64,000 nt of DNA, taken from Defluviitaleaceae bacterium (GTDB taxonomy: Bacteria; Bacillota; Clostridia; Lachnospirales; WRAX01). Under the pieces are notes generated by a model. That model was not told the DNA's origin and did not search any database. It saw nothing but the letters and a program-made list of their open reading frames with translations. A program made the position numbers and the translations under genes. The stretch spans positions 539 to 64,538 of the forward strand of contig WRAX01000011.1 in NCBI GenBank assembly GCA_009779935.1, read 5' to 3'. Shown here piece after piece: positions 42,973-44,109 of the stretch (position 1 is the stretch's first letter; the number at the start of each line of letters is the position of its first letter).

Positions 42973-43128
42973 TATAAATTTTACGCACGCACCACACTCG
43001 TTGTTGTACATAAGTGCGCTCTTTTTGCTTTTCCATTCAGCCAGTAAAGTCATTTTATCACAATTTTATTTTCTGTGACAATGTTGTCCGAACTGCGTTA
43101 TTTCTACCCTGCATAGCACACGTTCTAT
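42973..43128 (-). repeat. Copy c2 of the conserved upstream module
   Basis: Aligns along its length with 43955-44109, sharing AAATAACGCAGTTCG, TTGTGATAAAATGAC, GCACTTATGTAC and GTGCG-AAAATTTATA. Confidence 0.8.
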
Positions 43129-43384
43129 TATTTTAATAACAACCCTATTATATTTGACGGCGCAGGGGAACGGGTTCGTGAAGTCTGGATAAGCGAAGAA
43201 CACACTGTAACGCTTCATACGGGATGGGGCTTCGGTAAACGTACCACTATACACTACTTATCTTCTTCTGTTGGCGTTGCGCCCCCATTTATGTATGGCT
43301 TGGGTGGAAGCGGCACACATCTACATAGAGTTTTGGGAGACGACAGCCTTGTAGAACGTAATGTAAATAACGCCACTATGCTTA

Positions 43385-43912
43385 TTAGTCGCAATCAATT
43401 TGCAGTCTGTGTTTGCCGCAACTCAGACAATGAAACAGATAGCCTTGTAGTCTGCCGTCGTTGGAGAGGTGTTCTTTGACCATCGAAATTGGATATTCCC
43501 CATTTGCCGAAATATCTTCTTCAATTTCTGTTGCTATCCCCATTTGCTCTATCTCGTTCCATCCTACATAGCCTATAAAAGCACAAAAATCATTACAATG
43601 AGCAGGCCAATACTCTTGTTGCCACCCACTATATCCGGGCGTTCGAGTGCACAGTTCATTTAGTTTCTCAATGTCGCCAATTTCATCGCATGATGATTCA
43701 TCTTGGAATGTGCCATCAAATTTTTTGCTTGCTCTACCACTTTTTATATATTCAGGACACAAAAACTCAACTTCTCCTTCTGAATAAAATGGTCCGGAAT
43801 AATAAACGCTTGTGTCTTTATCACAACACTCACAAGTCACGATTTCATCCGTCTTAAACATCCCTGTTTTTATTGGGTCGGGATGGTACTTGAATATTGG
43901 TAATTTTACCAT
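43385..43912 (-). CDS. cbrC: CbrC-family protein (UPF0167)
   Basis: [14 protein letters not shown]...CECC...VYYSGPFYS...CPEYI...[20 protein letters not shown] is the CbrC family pattern. Confidence 0.75.
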
Positions 43913-43954
43913 TGGTTTCTCTCCTTTTCATAATACAGTTTGAAAGCGTAAGTT

Positions 43955-44109
43955 TATAAATTTTGCGCACGTACCCATGCTTGCAGTGGTACATAAGTGC
44001 CCCTCTGTTTTTATTATCCAAATAGTATAGTCATTTTATCACAACTTTGGATTGTTGTAGAGAAGTTCACGAACTGCGTTATTTATGCCCTTCACAGCTC
44101 ACGTTGTAG
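43955..44109 (-). repeat. Copy c3 of the conserved upstream module
   Basis: See c2. It has the same length and block order. Confidence 0.8.

Follow-up and report, generated by a model that had tools for sequence, protein, structure and literature searches.

The window analysed here is a stretch of 64,000 nucleotides (nt) from a Defluviitaleaceae bacterium (contig WRAX01000011.1) in which three diverged copies of a non-coding module, c1, c2 and c3, lie directly 5' of minus-strand genes. Most probably, this module forms the left arm of small DNA transposons of one non-autonomous family, each of which carries and expresses one accessory gene. A sequence-only reading of the window had proposed a portable expression module of mobile gene cassettes, and this proposal is borne out by more than 100 copies in front of unrelated cargo genes and by the terminal inverted repeats (TIRs) and TA dinucleotides that bound them. 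In the same way, the outer block of the module, which had been called terminal-repeat-like, turned out to be a true TIR, matched by a second one past the cargo gene and bordered by TA duplications.

The three modules had been described on the minus strand at 4690-4790 (c1), 42973-43128 (c2) and 43955-44109 (c3). All the quoted sequences were found by direct reading of the window, and their ordered blocks were reproduced in a MAFFT alignment in which c1 lacks the middle promoter block (~45-55 bp), as had been described. The downstream genes also agree with that description, with domain matches to a HEPN/ApeA-like protein, a deaminase and a CbrC-family protein (Table 1). Their expected AT-richness was confirmed by GC contents of 0.36, 0.39 and 0.40, compared with 0.46-0.54 for the neighbouring genes and 0.448 for the whole window. 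The leader pattern GCACTTATGYAC N14-28 TGCGYAAAA matched c1, c2 and c3 only and gave 0 matches in 100 dinucleotide shuffles of the window, and no fourth copy was found in the 64 kb by nhmmer, BLAST, a covariance model or a TIR profile. The further copies that the sequence-only reading had suggested looking for are numerous beyond the window.

Terminal inverted repeats, TA duplications and cargo

The elements follow a constant order, namely a TA dinucleotide, a TIR of ~32 bp, a variable slot, the leader hairpin with the next 12 nt, the Shine-Dalgarno (SD) sequence and open reading frame (ORF) of the cargo, a semi-conserved subterminal motif of ~15 nt (ATAAGCATTAGTAGCG), the second TIR and a second TA. 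Across 44 left arms, the TIR has a conserved core, CTGTGAAGGGTGGAAATAACGC, and more variable outermost positions (~10 nt). A profile of the outer block gave 190 matches in 124 loci, among which 48 non-redundant convergent TIR pairs enclose 0.5-4.2 kb (median ~0.9 kb), with TA immediately outside both ends in 42 of the 48. When at least 1 kb of upstream context was available, a left TIR was found no more than 1.2 kb from the hairpin in 68 of 75 copies. Where the context covered both sides of the hairpin (36 copies), both TIRs are present in 23, the left one alone in 11 and the right one alone in 2; no copy lacks both.

Mobility is seen most directly in the comparison of two loci, L001 and L115, that have their flanks in common, while 1.47 kb present in L001 (5799-7265) is missing from L115. 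The insert begins with the outer block GGATGTGTGCTGTGAAGGGTGTAAATAACAC, ends with its reverse complement and has TA on each side; joining the L001 flanks with a single TA restores a continuous 363-nt alignment to L115 through the junction. The empty site is located inside an intact small ORF adjoining a gene that is BrnT-like by sequence reading. In parallel, two other loci, L136 and L116, were found to be 86% identical over 913 bp, from ~11 nt before the left TIR to ~5 nt inside the right end, and their flanks beyond are otherwise unrelated. Because of this empty site, the 48 TIR pairs and the L136/L116 homology, the outer block is taken as a TIR and the units as TA-duplicating transposons.

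A comparison of presence and absence between genomes, which had also been suggested, revealed that the units differ at the same locus. Downstream of dnaB, where the window has the cbrC and deaminase elements, L115 contains a toxin-antitoxin pair and then a different element with a C5 methylase, and in L015 an element lies between minC and minD; the insertions are therefore lineage-specific. The toxin-antitoxin pair of L115 (reverse strand, 1-1007) is BrnT/BrnA-like by sequence reading, with an antitoxin-like ORF that has no Pfam match, and has a duplicate (~130 bp) of the dnaB 3' end at its flank. The region downstream of dnaB looks like an insertion hotspot across species.

Elements were often observed side by side (L130, 4117-4118; L004, 7342-7468; L075, 3047-3090). 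In L130 a single TA is common to two elements, and in L075 the right TIR of one element is adjoined by a second, 5'-truncated element, which suggests local hopping or a preference for insertion beside existing copies. Integron-like arrays were considered for the double hairpins of L075, L029, L004 and L130 and rejected, as these are adjacent separate elements.

The variable slot is filled by a promoter or by a type II toxin-antitoxin operon, or is empty, and the distance between TIR and hairpin changes accordingly. At 77-97 nt there is no promoter and the TIR is directly joined to (A)CTGGCTGAA; at 105-133 nt the promoter block TTGTGATAAAATGG is present; at 650-840 nt the slot holds a toxin-antitoxin pair (RelB/PemK, RelB/YafQ, MazE/ParE-like or PIN). 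The TTGTGATAAAAT box of c2 and c3, previously read as an extended -10 element, does score as a TG-extended -10 in a consensus scan, with a -35 at 17-18 nt, and forms an inward-facing promoter of the sigma-70 type. In the conservation profile of 44 promoter-type left arms, the TIR core, the -10, CTTTACTGGCTGAA and the hairpin appear as separate conserved blocks. The hairpin mostly stands 24-36 nt from the cargo start and conservation ends 12 nt past it, so that each cargo brings its own SD sequence. On the other side, the cargo stop codon is found 0-33 nt from the right TIR and at times abuts it.

The cargo is almost ORF-only. After hairpins, 92 complete first ORFs were found, with a median length of ~175 aa; clustering at 90% identity leaves 78 sequences, and the unrelated families number 67. 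Pfam and NCBIfam summaries of the 78 proteins, taken over the 25 families matched by most members, comprise 12 GNAT acetyltransferases, 8 AAA_18-type P-loop kinases (3 of them chloramphenicol-phosphotransferase-like), 4 APH proteins, two of which match APH(3') at 1.8e-64, and 3 nucleotidyltransferases (NTP_transf_2), along with methyltransferases and HAD hydrolases. Single elements carry a C5 DNA methylase with an HNH-like partner, an FRG-domain protein, SUKH/DUF4303, DUF6138 or a two-component system, and HEPN-domain cargo also belongs to the family (c1). In a metagenome contig (L090, 1114-1598), a cbrC cargo 91-97% identical to that of c3 is frameshifted into two frames.

When the leader pattern was run over one genome per species, it matched 24 loci, of which 18 are contigs of metagenome-assembled genomes (MAGs), 17 titled Defluviitaleaceae and 1 Oscillospiraceae; a single MAG, Emb289P1bin132, holds five copies. 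The remaining 6 matches, in unrelated phyla and missing the complementary half of the hairpin, were discarded as chance. A stricter pattern matched at least 118 stretches of metagenome contigs, whose prefixes are mostly those of the MAGs, and the covariance model of the hairpin gave 88 strong matches (>=44 bits) in 82 sources. A total of 125 distinct hairpin copies was counted in Defluviitaleaceae MAG and metagenome loci. One JGI contig encodes the exact c3 protein with the gene order of the window. Neither hairpin nor TIR was matched in scans of viral contigs, and no left arm was found in plasmids by BLAST. The family is here confined to Defluviitaleaceae MAGs and related metagenome contigs, the source of which we take from the sample names to be the guts of higher termites.

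The leader hairpin

The leader folds into a hairpin composed of a stem P1 (GCGCAC/GUGCGY), a one-sided UUAU bulge, and a stem P2 (GUACCAC/GUGGUAC), followed by a single bulged base, one more pair and a YRAR tetraloop. For canonical copies the folding energy is -18 to -23 kcal/mol, and the z-scores lie between -2.5 and -4.2. The covariation that the sequence-only reading had proposed to look for is little in the near-invariant stems, since the hairpin hardly varies in sequence, and the search patterns themselves account for part of this invariance. The pair that closes the loop, left free by these patterns, does covary: it is paired in 40 of 52 copies versus 31.6 expected, a value reached by 1 of 2000 shuffles, and occurs as A-U (19), G-C (13), G-U (5) and C-G (3). 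Moreover, the one-sided stem substitutions that keep pairing are all of G-U types on the sense strand.

The loop between the fixed arms measures 5-15 nt. This variable length indicates a folded single strand and not a duplex operator, and a LexA-type or other duplex operator was ruled out on the basis of an arm spacing that varies by up to 10 nt. A sense-strand terminator was rejected as well, there being no U-tract beside the stem, and so was a conserved leader peptide, as the upstream ORFs range from 3 to 55 codons, occur in every frame and in some cases are fused to the cargo. An AUG in the UUAU bulge is invariant; an SD-like AAGGG precedes it by 7 nt, and the upstream ORFs that it opens start with MYH (for instance at 43006-43016 of the window). 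A known RNA family was excluded for lack of any match in Rfam 15 at gathering or lax cut-offs; searches gave nothing at E up to 1 with three loci or at E up to 10 with 221 nt.

An RNA role is favoured because the hairpin holds a fixed position with respect to the cargo start, whereas the spacing between TIR and hairpin changes tenfold, and because it persists after toxin-antitoxin operons and in promoterless copies. We infer that it works in the mRNA and makes expression of the cargo independent of the insertion context. The near-invariant stem and bulge would suggest recognition by a trans-acting factor, either a protein or a nuclease, rather than mere stability. Of the TIR-bounded element at L130 2820-4116, which was found only by its abutting another element, the hairpin is rearranged with its 3' half and tail kept, hence the hairpin can decay.

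The second explanation offered by the sequence-only reading was a common cis-regulatory leader that ties the genes into one regulon. Such a leader could be, for instance, a riboswitch or a protein-binding leader, with mobility being incidental. The near-invariance of stem and bulge across diverged copies would suit such a leader, as would the fixed position before the ribosome-binding site and the maintenance of the hairpin in promoterless copies and behind toxin-antitoxin operons. This explanation is nevertheless very unlikely, given that all copies with context sit in a TIR-bounded unit, that 67 unrelated cargo families present no common ligand logic and that Rfam is silent even at E up to 10. 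In addition, no expression platform is seen, as the hairpin neither pairs with the SD sequence nor has a U-tract behind it on the sense strand. A shared leader may hold for the hairpin; it cannot be the whole story.

The hairpin might also act as folded single-stranded DNA, either as a cis site for transposition or as a structure-specific recombination site for the cargo, in which case it would be a transposon-borne analogue of attC/attI. With its 12-nt tail it forms the fixed joint between two variable slots, one for the promoter or toxin-antitoxin operon and one for the cargo, and the homology between loci L001 and L022 stops ~8 nt past its 3' end (L001 6599), with unrelated cargo beyond. 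The ORF-only cargo with its integron-like functional spectrum goes in the same direction, and the variable loop length and one-sided UUAU bulge suit a hairpin over a duplex operator. However, each TIR pair encloses one hairpin and one cargo slot, doublets being adjacent separate elements, and the 3' boundary of the cargo has no second site besides the TIR. The GTTRRRY/RYYYAAC cores are missing from the hairpin, no recombinase was seen in the collected loci, no recent cargo swaps were seen, and a distance of 77-840 nt to the TIR would be odd for a transpososome site. A DNA-level role is for these reasons rather unlikely, and that the hairpin is a dedicated site of cargo capture or exchange, through structure-specific recombination or template switching, is a doubtful proposition.

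Finally, the hairpin could be viewed as a polar insulator whose antisense strand, followed by CCUUUGUUUU, ends transcription coming from the cargo side and shields the promoter and the host genes on the left. The antisense strand of the c3 hairpin was called terminator-like in a consensus scan, and there is moderate conservation of the A-rich tract that precedes the hairpin. Yet this call was obtained in only 1 of the 3 window copies, and the antisense U-tract is interrupted and offset by CC. Since insulation would also leave the conserved UUAU bulge and the strict spacing to the cargo start unexplained, this role is scarcely credible.

The copies in the window

The features of the three elements are collected in Table 1. 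Each of the c1, c2 and c3 left ends has a TA just before it, and the c2 and c3 units extend past their cargo gene to a right end. In c3, the sequence of this right end is ATAAGCATAGTGGCGTTATTTAC/ATTACGTTC, and ~11 nt are missing from the core of its TIR; its local alignment score is 38.5 for a maximum of 30 in 200 shuffles, and the TIR profile matches weakly at 43362-43375. In c2, the right end reads ATAAGTATTATTAGCGTCATTTCAACCTTTATCAATGTGCGTCA and scores 43.5 for a maximum of 39 in 200 shuffles. The two elements are separated by 224 bp and both lie between dnaB and an M23 peptidase gene. Both c3 (44106-43354) and c2 (43125-42389) are insertions that are complete, though decaying, in the hotspot downstream of dnaB.

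Table 1. Positions of the element features of c3, c2 and c1 in the window
Feature	Position	Strand	Basis
c3 left TA, left copy of the target-site duplication	44107..44108	-	direct reading
c3 left TIR (outer block of the sequence-only reading)	44072..44106	-	TIR profile 44108-44072, 35.2 bits, E=3.7e-10
c3 inward promoter: TCTACA, 17 nt spacer, TG-extended TAAAAT	44033..44061	-	promoter consensus scan
c3 leader hairpin (P1, UUAU bulge, imperfect P2)	43965..44002	-	covariance model 43957-44009, 57.2 bits
c3 cargo, UPF0167/CbrC-family, 175 aa	43385..43912	-	PF03691, E=4.9e-60, full-length
c3 right end: subterminal ATAAGCATAGTGGCG, then right TIR with ~11-nt internal deletion	43354..43387	-	
c3 right TA	43352..43353	-	direct reading
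c2 left TA	43126..43127	-	direct reading
c2 left TIR	43091..43125	-	TIR profile 43128-43091, 31.7 bits
c2 promoter: TTGTCA, 18 nt spacer, TG-extended TAAAAT	43052..43081	-	promoter consensus scan
c2 leader hairpin	42983..43019	-	covariance model 42975-43026, 69.3 bits
c2 cargo, zinc-dependent deaminase (dCMP_cyt_deam_1 / MafB19-like), 170 aa	42446..42958	-	domain match
c2 right end: subterminal ATAAGTATTATTAGCG, then degenerate right TIR ending ...CGTCA	42389..42432	-	
c2 right TA	42387..42388	-	direct reading
c1 left TA	4791..4792	-	direct reading
c1 left TIR, short form without promoter block	4756..4790	-	TIR profile 4792-4756, 30.7 bits; alignment
c1 leader hairpin, P1 kept, P2 degenerate	4699..4735	-	covariance model 4691-4742, 53.7 bits
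c1 cargo, HEPN/ApeA-like, ~470 aa, start codon uncertain	3260..4672	-	HEPN_Apea PF18739, E=2e-8

The remaining copy, c1, is a promoterless one without a recognisable right end, presumably transcribed from the upstream gene, and the canonical P2 is missing from its fold. Its ORF is preceded by a GGGGGG SD sequence (4655-4680) with no ATG, GTG or TTG at normal spacing; the in-frame codons that follow are ATC or ATT at 2-5 nt, and TTG is met only at 17 nt.

Other sequences of the window were noted beside these elements. One weak TIR-like fragment, TGCTTGGTTTATGCCCATTAC at 44141-44161 outside c3, shares 76% identity with the TIR core of c3, and another, GATGTGTGCCGCTTCCACCC, occupies 43291-43323 in the interval from c3 to c2; neither is significant by local alignment, and both may have been left by older elements. 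A 167-bp palindromic element (42017-42183) directly upstream of the M23 peptidase gene has 36-nt arms, 94% complementary and 95 nt apart, and an inner hairpin, CGAGGTTCCGCACATACC/GGTATGTGCGGGTTCTCG. No Rfam family matches this palindrome and no other copy occurs in the collected loci; it could be another miniature inverted-repeat transposable element (MITE) or a structured leader. At gathering score, Rfam matched nothing on the module in the window, the sole match being a tRNA (1107-1180).

Proposed mechanism, known systems and significance

In the proposed mechanism, a DDE transposase supplied in trans would bind the TIR core and move the element into TA sites. TA duplication is a hallmark of the IS630/Tc1-mariner superfamily, and a duplicated TA together with TIRs, as found here, would point to an enzyme of this type. 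The inward promoter would start a transcript a few nt past TAAAAT with a leader of ~75 nt, while promoterless copies would be transcribed from the toxin-antitoxin promoter or by read-through from an upstream host gene. The leader hairpin would then act at the RNA level, at a fixed distance from the cargo start and not from the TIR. A bacterial precedent for mobilisation in trans is provided by RUP with IS630-Spn1 (PMC2229807).

Several observations weigh against a mobile family with a functional leader hairpin. Neither the elements nor the flanks examined yielded a transposase with matching TIRs, and both trans-mobilisation and the IS630-type assignment are drawn from one feature, the TA duplication. 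Only one clean empty site, that of L001/L115, was found, and no significant right TIR is present downstream of c1 (3000-3262). No recent cargo swap was detected, the left arms of elements with different cargo being at most 88% identical. As for the hairpin, stem covariation is no higher than in controls, and the hairpins of c1, c2 and c3 are imperfect and fold no better than shuffles. Furthermore, copies were gathered through the hairpin pattern, so that the apparent universality of the hairpin and part of its sequence invariance are effects of ascertainment.

The search for a cognate enzyme was made in several ways. A transposase family is absent among the 25 most-matched Pfam and NCBIfam families listed for the 78 cargo proteins, and no transposase or recombinase was seen among the ORFs of the longest elements, with six proteins of 301-399 aa scanned against Pfam. 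Clustering of multi-copy ORFs over ~900 kb of loci gave neither transposase nor recombinase and no parent insertion sequence (IS), and a literature search for Defluviitaleaceae transposons found nothing on a cognate transposase.

Mobile insertion cassettes (MICs) are defined as passenger genes between IS-like repeats, without a transposase and with target duplications (PMC4337579). The elements described here resemble them in having IS-type repeats at both ends (48 pairs, with degenerate right ends in c2 and c3 and none in c1), target duplications (TA/TA in 42 of 48 pairs, and the site reconstituted from L001/L115), passenger genes with no internal transposase, clustered or tandem insertions and presumed mobilisation in trans. 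By sequence, their structure would thus be that of MICs, cognate IS aside. The Tn3-type MICs of Xanthomonas generate a 5 bp duplication (PMC4337579), while the Defluviitaleaceae elements duplicate TA. They also differ from MICs by their very small size (median ~0.9 kb) with cargo of almost only one ORF, by a conserved left arm with its own promoter and leader hairpin, and by more than 60 unrelated cargo families on one backbone. The MICs of Bacillus cereus derive from IS231, a member of the IS4 family, and have a longer duplication.

TA-duplicating bacterial MITEs include RUP, related to IS630-Spn1, and the Correia/NEMIS elements (reviewed in PMC2229807). Like RUP and Correia elements, the Defluviitaleaceae units are non-autonomous with TIRs and TA flanks, and a theme is shared with Correia elements, which carry promoters and whose transcripts form stem-loops that affect neighbouring mRNAs. 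RUP and Correia elements are however 100-160 bp long, have no gene of their own and form their RNA stem from the TIRs, whereas the present elements have a separate internal hairpin ahead of a complete cargo gene.

A likeness to integron cassettes is seen in compact ORF-only units beside a conserved hairpin-forming site, and in a cargo of acetyltransferases, aminoglycoside-modifying enzymes, toxin-antitoxin pairs and many unknowns. On the contrary, the hairpin is here 5' of the ORF, with arms GCGCAC/GUACCAC and one hairpin per TIR pair, and there are no attC cores, no integrase, no attI and no arrays. No integrase was found among the multi-copy or neighbouring ORFs inspected, and every unit comes with TIRs, and often a promoter, of its own. 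Tc1/mariner-type elements suffer a length penalty on transposition, and the compactness of the cargo may reflect this penalty or else a dedicated capture mechanism.

One backbone made of TIR, promoter, leader, gene and TIR amounts to a ready-made expression vector for dozens of unrelated accessory genes, among which are enzymes of antibiotic-modifying type, restriction-modification and HEPN defence genes and immunity-like proteins. The family is likewise a source of a natural, compact promoter-leader module for an uncultured clostridial lineage, and in annotation it accounts for single-gene islands rich in AT, two of which lie downstream of dnaB in the window. The near-bare ORF cargo raises the same question as integron cassettes, namely how bare ORFs get acquired. 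If the hairpin were indeed a capture site, the family would represent a transposon-borne gene-cassette system in Firmicutes, a mobile equivalent of integrons with its own promoter.

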